A stretch of DNA of 64,000 bases from an uncultured Pseudomonadota bacterium (lineage in GTDB: Bacteria > Pseudomonadota > Gammaproteobacteria > Natronospirales > REEB76): the NCBI GenBank assembly GCA_963817285.1, contig CAWFOE010000008.1, positions 12,990 through 76,989 of the forward strand, in the 5' to 3' direction. This document shows, in pieces, positions 26,449-49,916 of this stretch. The notes below the pieces were generated by a model. It ran no database searches. It had not been told where the DNA came from and saw only the letters and a list, made by a program, of their open reading frames with translations. Each line of letters opens with the position of its first letter. Position 1 is the stretch's first letter. Position numbers and translations under genes: made by a program.

Positions 26449-26760
26449 TCAGTCATGGGTCCGGGCCGCCATCTGCGCCCACTCCAGAAGCAGGTCGGCA
26501 TCTTCGAGCACTTCTGCCGGAACTTCGTAATAGCGGTGCAACTCCTTCACACCCCTGGGGTTGAAGGGATGGCTGCCCTTCTTGAGATAAGCCGGACGGC
26601 TCGCCTCGTCGGTGCGGAAGTAGAGCGTGCCCTTGTGGGCGATGCCGAAGAAGCTGGAGCCGAGATATAGGCCATGGCCGCCGAACATGGCGCGCGTCTT
26701 TAGTGCTTTGGCCTCCGCCAGTTGCTCAAGCACGTAGTCGAGGAAGGAGGTATCAGCCAT
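26449..26760 (-). CDS. TfoX/Sxy N-terminal domain protein
   Basis: RAMFGGHGLY, LYFRTDE, YYEVPAEVLED..LLEWA. Confidence 0.88.
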   Translation of the reverse strand: MADTSFLDYVLEQLAEAKALKTRAMFGGHGLYLGSSFFGIAHKGTLYFRTDEASRPAYLKKGSHPFNPRGVKELHRYYEVPAEVLEDADLLLEWAQMAARTHD

Positions 26761-26929
26761 ATAGGTCGAGTCTCAGCCCCCAAGAGTCAAGATACTGGGT
26801 GGCTGCGCCACCTGCCCGGCTCCGCATCCTGCTCCGCCGGCAGCATGGCCCGTGCTCTCCTGCACGGGCGTTCGCAGCGGTGCTGCTCACTTGCTCCAGT
26901 ACATATTCCAGGAATGAGGTGTCGCTCAT
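26753..26929 (-). pseudogene. Relic 5' end of a TfoX paralog fused to a structured repeat
   Basis: ATG 26929 encodes MSDTSFLEYVLEQ (11/13 identical to MADTSFLDYVLEQ of the downstream gene), then runs into repeat copy A. Confidence 0.7.
26789..26890. repeat. Structured intergenic repeat, copy A (partial)
   Basis: 26866-26890 matches 48934-48958 at 23/25; colinear similarity continues to the terminal hairpin GGTGGC-tgc-GCCACC. Confidence 0.8.
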
Positions 26930-27364
26930 TTAAGGTCGCAGTGGGGTGAGCTGGCCCAATTCACGGTAGCGTCGATAGTCCGCCAGCACCAAGGCATGAT
27001 CGAAGACGAGTGTTGGGGGACGCAGGGGGTCGAAAGCCTGGGCCTTGGCCGCATCGTCCCCGGCTTTGGGATTGCCGTGGGCCTCACCTATATAGACCGC
27101 CGTGACGGTATGACCGCGTGGATCCCGGGCCGGATCGGAGTACATGCCCAGTAAGGTCTTGAGACGCACCTTGAGGCCGGTCTCCTCCTCGGCCTCCCGC
27201 ATCGCGGCCCGCTCCAGGCTCTCGCCCACTTCCACGAAGCCACCGGGCAAGGCCCAGCCAAGGGGTGGATTGCGCCGCTCGATGAGCACCACGGGCCTGC
27301 CCGGCTCGTCCAGGAGTTCGATGATCACGTCAGCGGCGAGGAGCGGCGTGACGAGGCGGGTCAT
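26930..27364 (-). CDS. NUDIX hydrolase
   Basis: Nudix box GGFVEVGESLERAAMREAEEETG. Confidence 0.95.
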   Translation of the reverse strand: MTRLVTPLLAADVIIELLDEPGRPVVLIERRNPPLGWALPGGFVEVGESLERAAMREAEEETGLKVRLKTLLGMYSDPARDPRGHTVTAVYIGEAHGNPKAGDDAAKAQAFDPLRPPTLVFDHALVLADYRRYRELGQLTPLRP

Positions 27365-27765
27365 CCGGCACTCCTGCGGGTGAAGCGGATGATCTGGCGC
27401 CTACTCTTCTTGTCCGGCCGTTTGGTTGGAGCCGGGTTGGTGAGCGCTCGGGCGCGTCCCAGTTCCCGACGCAGTTCACGGGCGGCGCGGCTCGCGACTG
27501 TCTCTTCGTAGAGCGCCTGGGCTTCGGCAGCAGGACCACGGCGCTCTGCCAGTGCACGCACCATGATCTCGAGATGCTCAGGACCGCGGGTGATGGAAAG
27601 ACTGTCGCCGGCTTTGAGCTCCCGCGCCGCTTTCGCCCGCACGCCGTTCACATGCACCTTGCCGCCATTCACGGCTGCAGCGGCGAGACTCCGGGTCTTA
27701 AACAGGCGGGCACACCAGAGCCATTTATCCAATCTGGCAGTCAGGGTGCCTGCCACGGCTCTCAC
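27361..27765 (-). CDS. hslR: Ribosome-associated heat shock protein Hsp15 (S4 domain)
   Basis: RLDKWLWCARLFKTRSLA, RRGPAAEAQALYEET, RPDKKSRR. Confidence 0.93.
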   Translation of the reverse strand: MRAVAGTLTARLDKWLWCARLFKTRSLAAAAVNGGKVHVNGVRAKAARELKAGDSLSITRGPEHLEIMVRALAERRGPAAEAQALYEETVASRAARELRRELGRARALTNPAPTKRPDKKSRRQIIRFTRRSAG

Positions 27766-41734: not shown

Positions 41735-43102
<1,368 letters not shown>

Positions 43103-43111
43103 TTAGATACT

Positions 43112-43249
43112 AAGAGTTCTGGTTGGCGGTGGACGCCAACTCCCCCGCTTCGCTTCCTGCTACACGGGCAGGCCCGTGCAGGCTATCCCTGCCTGCCCGT
43201 TCGACGCTCACAACATGCCTTCGGCATGTGCATGTTAGAGCAGTCTCAC
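43112..43249. repeat. Structured intergenic repeat, copy B
   Basis: Colinear with 48868-49020; hairpins GTTGGCG/CGCCAAC, ACGGGCAGGC/GCCTGCCCGT, ACATGCC/GGCATGT. Confidence 0.9.
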
Positions 43250-43278
43250 CCATCTCGTTCCAGCATCGCTTTGCCTCG

Positions 43279-45228
43279 TCAGTGATGCGTGCCGCTCGCC
43301 GGCATGAGCATGAGTTGCTGCAGGTCGTGCTGTAACACCGCCTGCTGGGATGGATCCCGGGTGGCGTTCAGCAACCCCTTGTAGAGATTACGTGCGTCAT
43401 CGATGTAGCCGGCCTTGGCCAGCATCTGCGCTGCCTGATAACGGGCGGTCTGGGCCCACTGATCCATGGCATAGGGATCCAGCAGCAGGGCGGAACGCAG
43501 ATATAGCTCCGACGCCTTGAGGTAATCCCCAAGAGCCTTATGGGAATCTGCAGTCCAGTAGAGCATCTGTCGTCGCTGTTCCGGTTGCAGAGGCATCTCG
43601 AGCAGTGCCTCGAAGAATGGGATGGCGTCCTTGTCTCGGTGCAGGGTCTGGAGATCAAAGAGCACTTGCAATACATCGTCAGCATCCACGGGGGTCGCGG
43701 CCGGCGTGGCAGCCTTGGCTCCTGCAGCGGTGACGGGTGCTGGCGCCGCGTCTTTCTTCGCGAGCAATTCCTTGAGAGCTGCCACCCCTGCATCCGGGTT
43801 GCCACCCAGGATGAACACGTGGGCTCGCTTCAACTGCCAGGCGCTGTCGGCAGTATCGGGGGGCGGCGTATCCAGGCCCTGCATGAGTTCGGAAGCGAGG
43901 GCGATATCAGGTATCTCCAGCACATCGTCCACCAGGAGATAGCGCACGTCCGCGGGAATCTCCGCGACGCCCTTGAAACGAGAGGAATCGAGATACAAAC
44001 GTCGCAGCAGCACATCCCCCAGTCGCTGCTTCTGGATGAGGGCGGCGAACTGCCATTGGGCCACGCTCACCTGCTGGGGATCGCTGGCCTGATACGCCAC
44101 CACGCTGAACAACGAGGCGGCGCGTATGGGATCGGTATCGAAGCGGTTGGAAGCCGCCAGGAACCAAGCTTGATCGTCGCCCACCACCAACTGGAGTTCG
44201 TTGCCGAGCTCTTCGCCGTAGGCCACGTAAGCATCCCACAGCATGTCGGGCGTGAGCCTGAAGATGTCGTCCTGATCCAAAACGCCGGCCTGGAGACCGA
44301 GGCCATCCTGCAACGCGCTGATGCGCGCCGCTGGATTCTTGAGATCATCCGCTGCTTCTGCCGCGATCACCCAGGCGTGCACCCGTTCGCTCTCGCTGGC
44401 GTCGCTGTCGCTGCCGATCTTGACCGCTTGGGCGAGCGCATCGGGCGGGGTCATCTCGCCGGAACGCAGCGATGCCAGCAGGGCCAGCATGTCCGCTTCG
44501 GGCCCGTTCACATCCTGCAGCACATCGAGAGCAGATTCCGGTTGCTGGGTCTTGAGGAACAGGCGTGCTTCCAAGAGCGGCCAATCCCCCGTGTCCTTGG
44601 GATAGTCCTGGCGATACCGGATGACGGCGGTACTGGCATCGTCCAACCGGCCTGCAGCGATGTAACTGCGGATGAGCAGACGGCGCAACTCTGCGAGCTC
44701 ACGGTCATCCGGCGGAGCGCCCGCATCCCACACCAGGGGCAGGAGCAGATCCCGAGCTTTGGCGGCATCGTTGAGGTGCAGCCAGGCGTCGGCCGCCTGC
44801 ATCTCCTCCCAGGCCCGGAAGTCTGCACCCGCATCACCAGGCAGGTGCTTGGCCCGGCCTATCACCGCCTGCCAGTCCCCACCGGACTGATATATATAGA
44901 TGCGCTCCCGCTCCCACGCCATCCAGCCTACCGCGTCTGCGGTGAAATCCGGCTGGTGTTCGTCCATGAGCTTGAGAGCAAGCTTAGGTGCCCCCGCAGA
45001 GGCCATCCCGCTCACGGTAGCGAGAGTGATGAGGTTCGGGTCCACGGGTGCCGCGCTTGCAGCAGCGGGTGCAGCGACGGTGGCTGCCACGGGTACCGCC
45101 TTGGTCGCAGCGGCCGGCGTCTTGGTCTTGTGCTTCTTCGCCGGTGCAGCCCATGCGCCCGCGCCCGCGCCCGCCGACAGCAGGAGGGCGAGCGACAGGA
45201 TGAGAGTTATACGCGCGCGGTGTTGCAT
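43279..45228 (-). CDS. Large exported helical-repeat (TPR-like) hypothetical protein
   Basis: Signal peptide, Ala/Pro linker, TPR-like helical repeats (YLKASELYLRSA, ARNLYKGLL). Confidence 0.7.
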   Translation of the reverse strand: MQHRARITLILSLALLLSAGAGAGAWAAPAKKHKTKTPAAATKAVPVAATVAAPAAASAAPVDPNLITLATVSGMASAGAPKLALKLMDEHQPDFTADAVGWMAWERERIYIYQSGGDWQAVIGRAKHLPGDAGADFRAWEEMQAADAWLHLNDAAKARDLLLPLVWDAGAPPDDRELAELRRLLIRSYIAAGRLDDASTAVIRYRQDYPKDTGDWPLLEARLFLKTQQPESALDVLQDVNGPEADMLALLASLRSGEMTPPDALAQAVKIGSDSDASESERVHAWVIAAEAADDLKNPAARISALQDGLGLQAGVLDQDDIFRLTPDMLWDAYVAYGEELGNELQLVVGDDQAWFLAASNRFDTDPIRAASLFSVVAYQASDPQQVSVAQWQFAALIQKQRLGDVLLRRLYLDSSRFKGVAEIPADVRYLLVDDVLEIPDIALASELMQGLDTPPPDTADSAWQLKRAHVFILGGNPDAGVAALKELLAKKDAAPAPVTAAGAKAATPAATPVDADDVLQVLFDLQTLHRDKDAIPFFEALLEMPLQPEQRRQMLYWTADSHKALGDYLKASELYLRSALLLDPYAMDQWAQTARYQAAQMLAKAGYIDDARNLYKGLLNATRDPSQQAVLQHDLQQLMLMPASGTHH

Positions 45229-45241
45229 CGGTTCACTGATG

Positions 45242-45268
45242 AAAAAACGGGCGCCTGGGCGCCCGTTT
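45242..45268 (-). terminator. Terminator of the rpsP-rplS operon
   Basis: AAACGGGCGCC-TG-GGCGCCCGTTT plus a T run on the minus strand. Confidence 0.8.
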
Positions 45269-45296
45269 CCTTAAAACGAATTCCGACCCTTGAGGT

Positions 45297-45638
45297 TTAC
45301 ACCTTCTCGCGGATTCGTGCGGCCTTGCCGGCCAGGTCACGCAGGTAATAGAGCTTGGCGCGGCGCACGTCGCCCTTGCGCTTCACTTCGATACCGCCGA
45401 TGCCGGGGCTGTGGGTCTGGAAGGTGCGCTCGACACCTTCGCCGTGGGACATCTTGCGCACGGTGAAGGAGGAGTTGAGGCCGCGGTGCTTCATGGCGAT
45501 GACCAGGCCTTCGAAGGCCTGCAGGCGCTCGCGCTCACCGTCCTTCACCTTGACCTGCACCACCACGGTGTCACCCGGCTCGAACGCCGGGATGTCTTTC
45601 AGCTGGGCCTGTTCCACTGCCTGGATGATCTTGTTCAT
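45297..45638 (-). CDS. rplS: 50S ribosomal protein L19
   Basis: [27 protein letters not shown]. Confidence 0.98.
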
Positions 45639-45665
45639 GACTGCATACCTTATGTGCAAAGACCG

Positions 45666-46412
45666 TTATTCACTTACACCCTGCGCACGGATGAAATCCG
45701 CGAGCAACTGTTCCTGTTCCTCGCTCAGCGCGAGACCCTGCAAGAGATCCGGGCGCCGCTGCCAGGTCCGCCCCAGCATCTGCTGCATGCGCCAGCGGCG
45801 TATGGCCGCATGGTCGCCGGAGAGCAGCACGTCCGGCACACGCTGGCCGTCGATCTCCTCGGGCCGCGTGTAGTGCGGACAATCCAGCAACCCGTTCATG
45901 AACGAGTCCTGGGCCGCCGACTCCTCGTCGTTCAAAGCCCCGGGGATGAGACGCGCCATGGCATCTATCATCACCAGCGCCGCCAGCTCACCGCCGGACA
46001 GCACGTAATCTCCGATGGACCATTCCTCGTCCACCTCAGCCTCGATCAGGCGCTCATCCACGCCTTCGTAGCGCCCTGCCACCAGCACCATCCCGGCACG
46101 CTGCGACAGTTCGCGCACGCCGTCCTGGTCAAGGGCCCGACCCTGCGGGCTGAGGTAGATCACCTTGGCCCCGTCGCCGGCTCGAGCCTTCGCCGCGTGT
46201 ATCGCCGCGCGCAAGGTCTCGACCTTCATCACCATCCCCGGGCCGCCGCCGTAAGGCCGATCGTCCACGCTCTTGTGCTTGTCGGTGGCGTGGTCCCGCG
46301 GATTGCTGGTACCCACCTCGAGCAGGCCGCGCTCCACAGCGCGCCCCGTCACGCCGAACTGGAGCAGGTTCTGCACCATCTCCGGGAAAAGCGTGACGAC
46401 TTCTATATGCAC
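45666..46412 (-). CDS. trmD: tRNA (m1G37) methyltransferase
   Basis: [32 protein letters not shown]. Confidence 0.98.
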
Positions 46413-46422
46413 ACTAGCCTCT

Positions 46423-46930
46423 TCAAAAATCGGGGTCCCAATCCACCTGGATCACGCGCTTGTCGAGATCCACGTGCTTGATGACCTGGCCATGGATGAA
46501 CGGGATGAGGCGTTCCCGTTCCCCTTTCACCACCAGCACGTCGTTCGAACCGGTGGCCATCAAACCTTCGACTGCACCGAGGGAACGTCCCCCATCAAGC
46601 TGCACATCCAATCCCACCAAGTCCATCCAGTAGTACTGGCCGGGCCGGGTCTTACTGAGTTGCTGCGCAAGACGGCGATGTCGGCGCCGAACACCGGGCT
46701 GCCTGATCCGGGTCGGTGATGCCTTCGAAACGGGCGATCACTCCCTTGCCGTGGGCATGGCCCTCGGCCACCTTCCACTCACGCCACCCGTCGCTGAGCT
46801 TCAGTTGCCAGGTACGGTAGTCGACGATCTTGTCGCGCGGTTCGGTGAAGGACAGGAGCTTGACCCAGCCCTTGATGCCGAACAGCCCCCCGATCTTGCC
46901 GATGACGATGCGCTGGGGCTCACCGCTCAT
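46423..46930 (-). CDS. rimM: Ribosome maturation factor RimM (frameshifted)
   Basis: [15 protein letters not shown]; [28 protein letters not shown] split across frames. Confidence 0.93.
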
Positions 46931-46936
46931 GCAGGC

Positions 46937-47185
46937 TTACAGAGCGACCTTGTGCTCCTTGAGCAGATACTGCACACGGTCCGAAGGCTGCGCGCCCTTC
47001 GAGAGCCAGTGCTTCATGCGCTCCGCGTCCACGCGCAGCGTCTCCTCGTGGCTCGCGGCCAGAGGATTGTAGAAACCGAGACGCTCGATGTAACGGCCGT
47101 CACGCGCGTTGCGCTTGTCGGTCGCCACCAGATGATAGAAGGGGCGCTTCTTGGCGCCGCCGCGGCTCAAACGTATGGTCACCAT
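46937..47185 (-). CDS. rpsP: 30S ribosomal protein S16
   Basis: [31 protein letters not shown]. Confidence 0.98.
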
Positions 47186-47340
47186 GGAATATCAGGTCCT
47201 CTAAAAAACTTGGGGCCGCCTTAGGGGCTGCCCACCGGAAAAACAGCAGGGTATTTTACGGGAATTTTAAGAAAAGTGAAGGGCTTACGTGGCTTTCGGG
47301 AGCGGGAAATGGGACTTTAAGGGGCATAAATGCGCGAAAT

Positions 47341-47452
47341 TAGCCATCCATGGCCTGCTTCCGGCCCGGACATCCTGTCCGGTCGCTCGAAACTGTGTTT
47401 CGAGCCCTGCCCGCCCCCGGGACGGGACCGACATGCCCCGGCATGTCGGCTA
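47341..47452. repeat. Multi-hairpin element right after the ffh stop; probable diverged member (copy C) of the repeat family
   Basis: Hairpins CCGGACA/TGTCCGG, GCTCGAAAC/GTTTCGAGC, CCGACATGCC/GGCATGTCGG; shares CCCTGCCyGCCC..CGACATGCCnnGGCATGT with copy D. Confidence 0.55.
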
Positions 47453-48817
47453 AAAGGGTCTTCCACGCCCAGGCGGCAGCTGTCCTTTCATATTGCGCAG
47501 CATTTTTGCGATTCCTCCCGCCCCGGCCATCTGTTTCATCACGGCTGCCATCTGGTCGTACTGCTTCAGGAGGCGGTTCACCTCTTGGACCTGGGTGCCA
47601 GACCCCTGGGCGATGCGTCGCCGACGGGAGCCATTGATGACATCCGGCTTAGTCCGCTCCCCGGGGGTCATGGAGTTGATGATGGCGATCTGGCGCTTCA
47701 GCTCCTTCTGGCCGAACTGACCCTCGGCTTTGCCGGCCATGGCAGCCCCGCCCGGCAGCTTGTCCAACATGGCCCCTACCCCGCCCATGGCCAGCACCTG
47801 CTCGAGTTGGGCGCGCAGATCCATGAGGTCGAAGCGCTTGCCGGATTTGAGTTTGTTGACGAGCTCAGCGCCCTTCTCCCGGTCCAGCTTCTGTTCCGCC
47901 TGTTCCACCAGGGCGAGCACGTCACCCATGCCGAGGATGCGGGAGACCACACGCTCCGGCTGAAAGACTTCGAGGGCAGAACTATCTTCTCCCACGCCCA
48001 TGAACTTGATGGGCACGCCGGTGACTTGACGCACCGAGAGGGCCGCGCCACCCCGAGCATCGCCATCGGCTTTGGTGAGGATAGCGCCCGTGAGAGGCAA
48101 AGCTTGGCCGAACTCGGTGGCCGCTTTGGCGGCATCCTGACCTGCCATGGCATCCATGACGAAGAGAGTCTCTTTCGGCGCGACAGCCGCATGGATGCGA
48201 CGCGCTTCGTCCATGAGCTCCGCGTCCACATGCTGGCGGCCAGCGGTATCTACGATGAGCACGTCATAGAGTCGCGCTCGCGCTTCAGTGAGAGCTGCAG
48301 TAGCGATGGCTACCGGATCTTTACTATCGAAAGGGAAATAGGTAGCGCCCACGGGACCCGCGAGTCGCTCAAGCTGTTCCCGTGCTGCCGGACGATAGAT
48401 GTCAGTGCTGACCAGGAGCACTTTCTTGCGCTCGCGATCCACGAGATGTTTCGCGAGTTTGGCGGCGGTAGTGGTCTTGCCCGCGCCCTGCAGGCCCGCC
48501 AGCAGGATGACAACGGGTGGCGTCGCATTTAGATCGAGAGGTGCTGCCGCACCGATGGCGCGCAGCAATTCTTCATGCACTACTTTGATGAAGGCCTGGC
48601 CGGGGGTGAGGCTCTTCAGTACATCCGCGCCGAGAGCGCGGGTGCGGGCGGATTCGGTGAAAGCCTGCACTACCAGCAAGGCCACGTCCGCTTCCAGCAA
48701 AGCCAAGCGTACATCGCGCAAGGCATCGCGGATGTTCTGCTCGGTCATGCGCCCGGAACCGCGCAGGGCATCCAAGGTCTTGGATAGGCGTTCGCTTAAG
48801 GCTTTGAACATAGACAT
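47450..48817 (-). CDS. ffh: Signal recognition particle protein
   Basis: LLEADV, GLQGAGKTT, DTAGR, TKADGDARGG, IINSMT, SRRRRIAQGSG. Confidence 0.98.
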   Translation of the reverse strand: MSMFKALSERLSKTLDALRGSGRMTEQNIRDALRDVRLALLEADVALLVVQAFTESARTRALGADVLKSLTPGQAFIKVVHEELLRAIGAAAPLDLNATPPVVILLAGLQGAGKTTTAAKLAKHLVDRERKKVLLVSTDIYRPAAREQLERLAGPVGATYFPFDSKDPVAIATAALTEARARLYDVLIVDTAGRQHVDAELMDEARRIHAAVAPKETLFVMDAMAGQDAAKAATEFGQALPLTGAILTKADGDARGGAALSVRQVTGVPIKFMGVGEDSSALEVFQPERVVSRILGMGDVLALVEQAEQKLDREKGAELVNKLKSGKRFDLMDLRAQLEQVLAMGGVGAMLDKLPGGAAMAGKAEGQFGQKELKRQIAIINSMTPGERTKPDVINGSRRRRIAQGSGTQVQEVNRLLKQYDQMAAVMKQMAGAGGIAKMLRNMKGQLPPGRGRPF

Positions 48818-48867
48818 AGATTATCGCCCAAGAATCGGATGAAGCGACATGATCATAAAAGCTGGAT

Positions 48868-49020
48868 TAGAGATTCTGGCTGGCGGTGGCCGCCAGCTTC
48901 CCCGCTTCGCTTCCCGGCTGCGCGGGCAGCTATGGGCGTTCGCAGCAGTGCTACTCACCCTGCCTGCCCGTTCGACCGCTCACGACATGCCTATGGCATG
49001 TGCGTGTTACGCAGTCTCAC
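48868..49020. repeat. Structured intergenic repeat, copy D (longest)
   Basis: Starts immediately after the stop codon at 49021; matches copy B at both ends and copy A internally. Confidence 0.9.
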
Positions 49021-49785
49021 TTATAGGTCAAAGACCTCGCCACCCATGAGGCGATGCAAGCGGCGCTTGGGAAGAGCGGCCACGATCTCGGCGAAGATCG
49101 AGTCTTCAGCGCCGGGCTTGAGATGGGTGATATGGATGTCGGGATCATGCTTGAGCTTCGTGATGTCAGCCGCCAGTGTCTTGGGGCAGTAATGCTTGGC
49201 GAGATCGGCGAGCTTCTCGTTGCTGTTGGCGAAGGCGGTCTCCACCATGAGCGCATCCACTCGCGGATAAGCGTTGAGCGCGGTCCAGAACGTGTCGTTG
49301 GTGAAGGTGTCGCCACTGAAGGCGAAGACCTTGCCACCTTTCTCGATGATGTAGCCCGCACCCGGCACAGTGTGGTTCACCTCCACGAGGTGCATGCTGC
49401 GGCCGTCCACGTCCTGTCGCTGGCCGAGCTTCAGGGGATGGTACTTGAGCACCGGCGACTGCTTGTCGGGTAGCTCGGCGAAATCCGGCCACATGATCCA
49501 GTTGAAGATGTACTTCTTGACTGCGTCGAGGGTCTCAGGGCGACCGTACACCGTGAGCGGCGTCTTCAAGTGATCGAAGATGGTGTCGATGAGGAGCGGC
49601 AGACCCGCAGTGTGATCCAGATGGGAATGGGTCAGGAACACATGACGGATGTGACGCATCTCATCGAGCGTGAGATCGCCGATGCCGGTGCCGGCATCGA
49701 TGAGGATGTCTTTGTCCACGAGCAAGGAGGTGGTGCGCAGTTCCGCACCGATGCCGCCGCTGCAACCCAGGATCTTGATGCGCAT
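49021..49785 (-). CDS. Metallo-beta-lactamase-fold 3',5'-cyclic-nucleotide phosphodiesterase (class II-like)
   Basis: LGCSGGIG, IDAGTG, THSHLDH, IFNWIMWPDF, HTVP, SGDT, THLKP. Confidence 0.8.
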   Translation of the reverse strand: MRIKILGCSGGIGAELRTTSLLVDKDILIDAGTGIGDLTLDEMRHIRHVFLTHSHLDHTAGLPLLIDTIFDHLKTPLTVYGRPETLDAVKKYIFNWIMWPDFAELPDKQSPVLKYHPLKLGQRQDVDGRSMHLVEVNHTVPGAGYIIEKGGKVFAFSGDTFTNDTFWTALNAYPRVDALMVETAFANSNEKLADLAKHYCPKTLAADITKLKHDPDIHITHLKPGAEDSIFAEIVAALPKRRLHRLMGGEVFDL

Positions 49786-49916
49786 GGAAATGAACCCTGC
49801 CGCCGCTGGCGACTCCCTTGCAGAAAGCTTATCACAGGCTGTTTTCACGGTCCTTCACCGGGGACTGCGGCTATGCGATGATGAAAGCGCCCAAAGAACC
49901 CGGCTGAAACCATCCT

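Follow-up and report, generated by a model that had tools for sequence, protein, structure and literature searches.

The window analysed here, a 64,000-nt stretch of one contig from an uncultured gammaproteobacterium, carries four copies (A–D) of an intergenic repeat (Table 1). Copy B, 138 bases long, occupies the gap between the genes for a TPR protein and a PLP-dependent decarboxylase. Copy D adjoins the stop codon of an MBL-fold protein gene and lies about 50 nt upstream of ffh, and copy C is found directly downstream of the ffh stop codon (47450-47452). Copy A belongs to a region (26449-27765) of tightly packed small minus-strand genes (103, 144 and 134 aa), where the stop codon of the 144-aa gene directly adjoins the start codon of a gene remnant. 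The TPR gene itself shows an in-frame length variant in the population, as contigs of two public runs are without 6 nt at window position 45155. No T run follows any hairpin of copies B or D on either strand, and the two copies do not have the features of an intrinsic terminator (a G+C-rich hairpin with a U run).

Table 1. Repeat copies, gene remnants and neighbouring genes in the window, with related loci elsewhere in the genomes.
Feature	Position	Strand	Parts, basis or remarks
Copy A	26789..26890	-	W, X, Y, Z; ends in CTCAC variant of Z; 71.5 bits
Remnant beside copy A	26891..26929	-	First 13 codons of the gene downstream of copy A, from flank alignment and sequence; intact counterpart starts at 26760
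PLP-dependent decarboxylase gene	41735-43102	-	Intact start at 43102
Copy B, full element	43112..43249	-	From sequence, model match and folds; strand suggested by G·A mismatches; model match spans 43134-43238, 58.1 bits
Copy B, hairpin W	43123-43139		From folds
Copy B, hairpin X	43144-43168		From folds
Copy B, hairpin Y	43175-43199		From folds
Copy B, extended hairpin Z	43200-43249		From folds
Copy B, inner hairpin within extended Z	43213-43229		
Remnant of decarboxylase 5' end (17 nt)	43250..43266	-	From comparison with G012, G001 and G013 (empty) and with G004 and G007
TPR protein gene	43279-45228	-	
Copy C	47331..47449	-	Mini-hairpin, Y, Z and one further hairpin; 40.5 bits
ffh	47450-48817	-	
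Copy D	48868..49020	-	W, X, Z-like module, Y 3' arm, extended Z; 41.0 bits
MBL-fold protein gene	49021-49848	-	
Stand-alone Y-type hairpins	G000:C12:68198, C4:21719, C8:114784, C29:17549, C14:4552		
Tandem arrays beside tRNA-Phe, tRNA-Val or at contig end	G000:C13:47400-47900, C17:27450-28350, C18:42800-43375		
Array downstream of csrA	L001 1860-2180 (G000:C29)		About 3 tandem units of about 110 nt, then the real tRNA-Ser

Structure and covariation of the repeat family

The preliminary description of this DNA had regarded B and D as colinear, with a partial copy at A and a diverged one at C (placed there at 47341-47452). Alignment bears this out, with B and D identical at 79% of 153 nt (blastn E 8e-26) and A and C related to them less closely; a covariance model constructed from copies in the genome finds all four. 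The TTC and TAT loops, and the T-A, C-G and G-C variants of the first stem, are also present in the sequence as described. Iterated nhmmer searches from B and D returned 39 matches in the genome, 37 of which were aligned, leaving out D (because of its insertion) and one truncated copy. The 37 rows on which the model was trained included A and B but not C or D.

The core of the family consists of three adjacent hairpins (X, Y and Z), the stems of which differ in nearly every copy yet stay complementary, while the loops and junctions are fixed. Hairpin X has a variable outer stem and, inside it, a conserved GC/GC box, a 3x3 internal loop and an apical loop of the TTCCT type. Hairpin Y takes the form GGG-NNNN-CA / TCC(N) / TG-NNNN-CCC and hairpin Z the form YTCG-NNGC / loop / GCNN-CGAR-CCC. 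Copy B carries two extras, a 5' hairpin (W) and a hairpin within Z; in copy D the 5' arm of Y is replaced by a Z-like module, and copy C is without X. The CGGGCAG and CTGCCCG segments that had been proposed as a conserved stem around a variable centre are both there, but they do not form the enclosing stem of the family. CTGCCCG belongs to Y and CGGGCAG to X, in each case as the 3' arm, so that their pairing is an alternative one, particular to this subfamily. Modules W, X, Y and Z are combined differently in A–D and elsewhere, and modules nest within each other; the repeat is a mosaic of the BIME kind, in which a few types of hairpin and linker module are variously combined. Its ends are defined, the folded strand beginning with GUGAG or GUUCG and finishing with a CCAG-rich tail. 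Outside the full elements, nearly identical Y-type hairpins (8-bp stem, GGGA or TGGA loop) stand alone at at least five loci.

Pairing is maintained across the family. Among the 37 aligned copies, 79.8% of cells are paired, compared with 63.1% in shuffled alignments (none of 500 as high) and 30-43% when the partners are slid; double-change cells number 211 (76 in shuffles), and 26 of the 29 pairs are changed on both sides. An alignment of 66 distinct copies from other taxa, which was fitted to the model and so leans towards structure, gave 84.5% paired cells (68.1% when shuffled) and 349 double changes (116 when shuffled). Single copies are also constrained. Copy D of the window's own genome is 88-91% identical to its orthologues in three other species (91-94% in the 3' part), while the flanking coding DNA is 81-84% identical and its third codon positions 61-71%. 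As the D copies are more alike than third codon positions, individual copies appear to be constrained, unlike pure junk, and inserted copies are presumably kept by purifying selection. Both lines of evidence agree with the early suggestion that the structure is under selection.

The strand that folds was assessed from the mismatches. Transition-type mismatches showed no asymmetry between G:T and A:C (39 vs 46 and 78 vs 50 in two alignments); near-equal numbers are unlike a typical one-strand RNA and count against the preferred reading set out below. The internal loop of X and two positions of Z have T·C and C·T mismatches on the strand first described, and tandem G·A on its complement, the two Z positions being unpaired in 36-39 of the 66 sequences. 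These conserved tandem G·A mismatches point to the complement as the structured strand, and the minus strand would then be the one that folds at copy B. The complement is the mRNA strand at all four window copies, and on it the loops read ACA(N)GGAUGU (Y) and CAGGAAG (X); it is referred to below as the GGA strand.

Filled and empty sites, genomic context and the tRNA link

The loci of B and D were matched in 13 of the 14 other genomes of the genus. The D site is filled in G008, G002, G012 and G010 and empty in G007, G009, G011, G014, G006, G004 and G001, where the genes are 31-45 nt apart; it is probably empty in G005, and G013 gave no call. The B site is filled in G006, G008, G004 and G007, empty in G012, G001 and G013, and holds other DNA in G011, G010 and G014, with no call for three genomes. 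Copy C is missing from the orthologous site in G007. Presence does not track similarity, as G007 is the closest relative in ffh (84%) yet is empty at D. In G002 and G012 the W loop of the D-site copy contains a nested module of about 50 nt, which recurs in the W loop of the B-site copy in G008. Filled and empty sites in sister species, nested modules and the target duplications described next uphold the mobile-element alternative of the preliminary description; by comparison of sequences, the repeat appears mobile on an evolutionary timescale, with copies gained and lost at orthologous sites. Presence and absence could partly reflect deletion between flanking repeats.

Where the B site is filled, a remnant of the 5' end of the decarboxylase gene comes next after the element; it is 17 nt long in the window's own genome, 37 nt in G004 and about 75 nt in G007. 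In the window it reads M-L-E-R-D-G, after which an in-frame stop is supplied by the first bases of copy B. This remnant differs from the gene start of G012 and G013 at 1 of 17 bases, while the functional copy (43074-43090) differs from that start at 4 of 17, which would be odd if the duplication had arisen in place, although 17 bases are too short to test this. The 13-codon remnant beside copy A belongs to a target duplication of about 46-53 nt that flanks the copy; at the D site the stop codon alone is repeated. Direct repeats exceeding the 95th percentile of controls flank 23 of 61 copies in the own genome, about half of which lie in tandem arrays where neighbouring units add to the score, and 10 of 46 copies in relatives, one unpublished genome (G020) included. 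Copy B scored below this threshold (19), and its remnant is visible solely by comparison with orthologues. Duplications are between 3 and about 98 nt long, a spread that matches no known transposase, and the junctions are polar, with the Z end always adjoining the breakpoint within the target. A MITE, with its terminal inverted repeats and target-site duplication of constant length, was considered and rejected, as the ends of B and D, when read, share at most about 4-5 complementary bases and the duplication length is not fixed.

In G007, G010, G011 and G014 the gap between the TPR and decarboxylase genes contains 700-1100 nt of unrelated DNA with open reading frames, and in G007, G010 and G011 a motif resembling an element end lies beside the TPR stop codon. 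The gap looks like an insertion hot spot. Contigs from four public DNA runs, of low depth and short length, bridge B, and none of their joints skips B or D. Copies at different loci are mostly 75-85% alike, the best pair reaching 91% over 231 nt; as none are near-identical across loci, recent transposition is not visible.

The genomic context was counted for 62 copies in the own genome and 50 in loci of relatives (one of them from G020), using a crude codon-usage gene caller of our own. Copies lie between convergent genes (18 own, 13 relatives), between co-directional genes in sense (19, 11) or antisense (6, 8) to the GGA strand, between divergent genes (7, 7), at contig edges (8, 9) or inside a called ORF (4, 2). 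The four window copies do share the single orientation first reported, but genome-wide this amounts to a mild bias, as the co-directional contexts comprise 30 sense and 14 antisense copies and the former count is inflated by tandem arrays. Adjacent copies are mostly on the same strand (direct), not inverted. No significant bias with respect to replication appeared, the GGA strand being the G-rich one at 29 of 48 loci (p = 0.19).

A strong association with tRNA genes was found. Twenty-three of the 62 copies (13 of 46 loci) are 300 nt or less from one of 38 tRNA genes, compared with 4.8% of random intergenic points. Tandem arrays lie beside tRNA-Phe, tRNA-Val and tRNA-Ser, with a fourth where contig C18 ends; each of their units combines a tRNA-end fragment with Z and Y. 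In the C13, C17 and C18 arrays the fragment is either the 5' part of the tRNA as far as the D-loop or its 3' part starting at the T-loop, with about 25 nt of adjacent spacer. Units of the array downstream of csrA carry the first ~18 nt of tRNA-Ser together with Z and Y hairpins in the GGA sense, and a weak match (15 bits) to the CsrB model extends across this array.

Abundance, spread and comparison with known repeats

The covariance model (E up to 0.01) detects 62 copies in the own genome (2.14 Mb, 69% complete), the four in the window among them. All 24 other genomes of the same family carry the repeat, with 6-91 matches each, where at most 97 candidates were scored per genome and one genome (G020) is unpublished. 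Across eight other families of the order it is sporadic (5 of 16 genomes). An exact-pattern scan of named genomes gave at least 118 stretches and, among the matches listed, the model confirmed 60 of 80 loci. These 60 carry the labels Gammaproteobacteria, Proteobacteria or Pseudomonadota, with one 'Alphaproteobacteria' MAG as the exception, and the carriers among these listed matches include Steroidobacter, Peristeroidobacter soli, Alkalilimnicola ehrlichii, Sulfurifustis, Acidiferrobacterales, Ca. Muproteobacteria and Competibacteraceae. The 20 listed loci that the model did not confirm look like chance matches; they come from other phyla (Streptomyces, Acidobacteriota etc.), apart from one Steroidobacteraceae MAG. 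An even sample of the class (149 genomes of other families, the unpublished G077 among them) contained 9 with matches at E up to 1e-5, two of which have 22-23 matches each from at most 26 scored candidates. The distribution elsewhere in the class is patchy.

Rfam models give no match at the gathering threshold in the window and, at E up to 1, only chance-level matches for 20 copies and for window 42900-49300, so the novelty anticipated for the family stands as far as Rfam is concerned. No description of the repeat was found in the literature searched. It appears to represent a large and undescribed repeat family of soil Gammaproteobacteria.

Intergenic repeats of bacteria are usually either fixed palindromes tied to RAYT or MITEs derived from transposons. 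The REP and BIME elements of E. coli and the REPINs of Pseudomonas are short, G+C-rich extragenic palindromes, present in tens of copies, mosaic and clustered; REP stems are fixed and their loops variable, units alternate or are inverted, and they are commoner between convergent than divergent genes. The present repeat is likewise short, G+C-rich, extragenic, clustered, mosaic and more frequent between convergent than divergent genes. It differs in that its stems are hypervariable and its loops conserved, clustered units are direct, long target duplications flank it, the link to tRNA genes is strong and there is no correlated RAYT. On this last point the REP/REPIN-RAYT mechanism offered in the preliminary description is not supported. 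The Y1_Tnp domain (PF01797) has no match in the 69%-complete own genome or in the 100%-complete G011 and occurs in 2 of 14 genomes of the genus, while the repeat is present in all 14, which indicates that this is not a RAYT-driven REP; the domain is also found in families without the repeat.

Integron attC sites are element-wide imperfect inverted repeats with conserved core sites, arranged as a cassette array next to intI. They resemble the repeat in having a conserved structure with free stem sequence and informative mismatches on one strand. The small co-directional genes around the copies had brought an attC array to mind, an idea ruled out when the translated neighbours proved to be housekeeping genes (ffh, PLP decarboxylase, TPR protein, MBL-fold protein). 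The hairpins are local, without an inverted repeat spanning the element and without a cassette array, and core motifs are absent as judged by reading. Another parallel is RtT (Rfam RF00391), the 178-bp units at tyrT of E. coli, which also combine, in tandem, a fragment of the neighbouring tRNA gene with hairpin-rich sequence. The arrays at C13, C17, C18 and C29 have this architecture and copy B does not; unlike RtT, the modules are also dispersed at the ends of protein genes (B, D, A), and the RtT model, searched at E up to 1, matches neither the tRNA-Ser locus nor window 42900-49300.

The regulatory RNAs CsrB, RsmY and RsmZ are specified by one to three genes, each under a promoter and terminator of its own. 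They share with the repeat loops of the type CAGGA(U/A)G or ACA(N)GGAUGU on the folded strand, but the repeat has 60 or more dispersed copies, and about one-third of those in co-directional contexts are antisense. The corresponding models (RF00018, RF00166, RF00195) find nothing above the gathering score in the window or in five genomes of the genus, the best being the 15-bit CsrB match beside csrA. In kind, the family is a mosaic repeat like REP/BIME, with the sequence logic of attC, tRNA-linked insertion with target duplication, and CsrA-like loops.

Possible mode of spread and function

The reading preferred here, to which a probability of about 0.6 is given, is that of a non-autonomous mobile repeat, modular and conserved in structure, that is independent of RAYT and probably retained as transcribed protein-binding hairpins. 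The elements would be non-autonomous mobile DNA that appears and disappears at orthologous sites, inserting at gene ends and into the loops of hairpins, whether those of other copies or the D-loop and T-loop positions of tRNA genes. Insertion would leave a target duplication of variable length, so that the gene that was hit survives beside a truncated remnant. The mobiliser may be an enzyme acting in trans, or else template switching during host replication and repair; variable duplications and loop-targeted breakpoints would be compatible with a structure-specific enzyme as well as with template switching. Retention may be due to the protein-binding hairpins that a transcribed copy would offer in untranslated regions, with CsrA as the leading candidate partner. 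The other alternative of the preliminary description, a multi-copy cis-acting RNA, may apply as well, with the motifs and the strand asymmetry in its favour. The features that set the family apart are the attC-like combination of free stems and fixed loops, independence from RAYT, targeting of tRNA genes and gene ends with long duplications, and copies that change more slowly than synonymous sites. It also links dispersed repeats with the little-studied tRNA-linked arrays of the RtT type, and it provides a concrete candidate for the CsrA antagonists that seem to be missing from Steroidobacterales, Acidiferrobacterales and similar lineages. As several carriers have been cultured, this idea is testable.

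CsrA binding is the leading, though unproven, function predicted from the motifs, and a stronger version makes it the primary role. The copies would then be CsrA-binding RNAs above all, either soaking up the protein as a dispersed sponge or bringing genes into the Csr regulon, with two GGA loops per unit to suit one CsrA dimer and spread being secondary; as the whole explanation we consider this rather unlikely, though it fares best among the alternatives. In PMC7652899, the SELEX consensus for CsrA is RUACARGGAUGU and the CsrB repeat is CAGGA(U/A/C)G, matched by the Y and X loops respectively, but most of the SELEX hairpins reported there have four or fewer contiguous pairs and the stems of the repeat have 9 bp. 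Loops of the GGA type are the three commonest loop types of intergenic perfect hairpins (48 of 613), and ACARGGATGT occurs 17 times against 5.1 expected, 13 of these being intergenic. The genome has its own csrA, and the RsmZ, RsmY and CsrB models all fall below cut-off in the five genus genomes. csrA is, however, present in all 23 high-quality genomes of the order, also in families that lack the repeat, and its co-occurrence with the repeat is therefore uninformative. Sense arrays follow csrA in the own genome and same-side model matches follow it in G007, but the csrA-adjacent array is at the same time just a tRNA-Ser-linked array. The excess of sense copies favours the role in RNA; set against it, 14 of the 44 co-directional copies would show UCC loops instead of GGA.

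A less probable alternative, one we think decidedly doubtful, dispenses with dedicated mobility. Copies would be by-products of template switching at stable hairpins, kept as stabilisers of mRNA ends or as DNA-binding sites like the REP/BIME of E. coli. The variable and often long duplications, the breakpoints in hairpin loops of tRNA genes and the preference for convergent over divergent genes fit such an origin, as do the lack of any transposase found to correlate with the repeat and the absence of recent identical copies, which were looked for. The conservation of loop and junction sequences across orders of Gammaproteobacteria, with stems left free, speaks against it, as it calls for a sequence-specific partner and not simply any hairpin. 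The defined element ends also weigh against it, and the distribution, patchy across the class with many copies in those genomes that have the repeat, looks like horizontal spread. A classical REP/REPIN moved by a RAYT (a Y1 HUH transposase), or else an array of integron attC sites, would account for high-copy extragenic palindromes and for conserved structure with free sequence, but is very improbable given the distribution of Y1_Tnp, the unfixed stems, the direct copies and the housekeeping neighbours set out above.

As a bolder and distinctly unlikely extension, the repeat may be a mobile CsrA-binding module. It would be a selfish element with two high-affinity GGA hairpins, moving via tRNA genes and gene ends, possibly by way of an RNA or a single-strand intermediate, in basal Gammaproteobacteria without a recognisable CsrB/Rsm RNA. 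If this were true, the repeats would be both a dispersed CsrA sponge and a route by which ffh and other genes become part of the Csr regulon.
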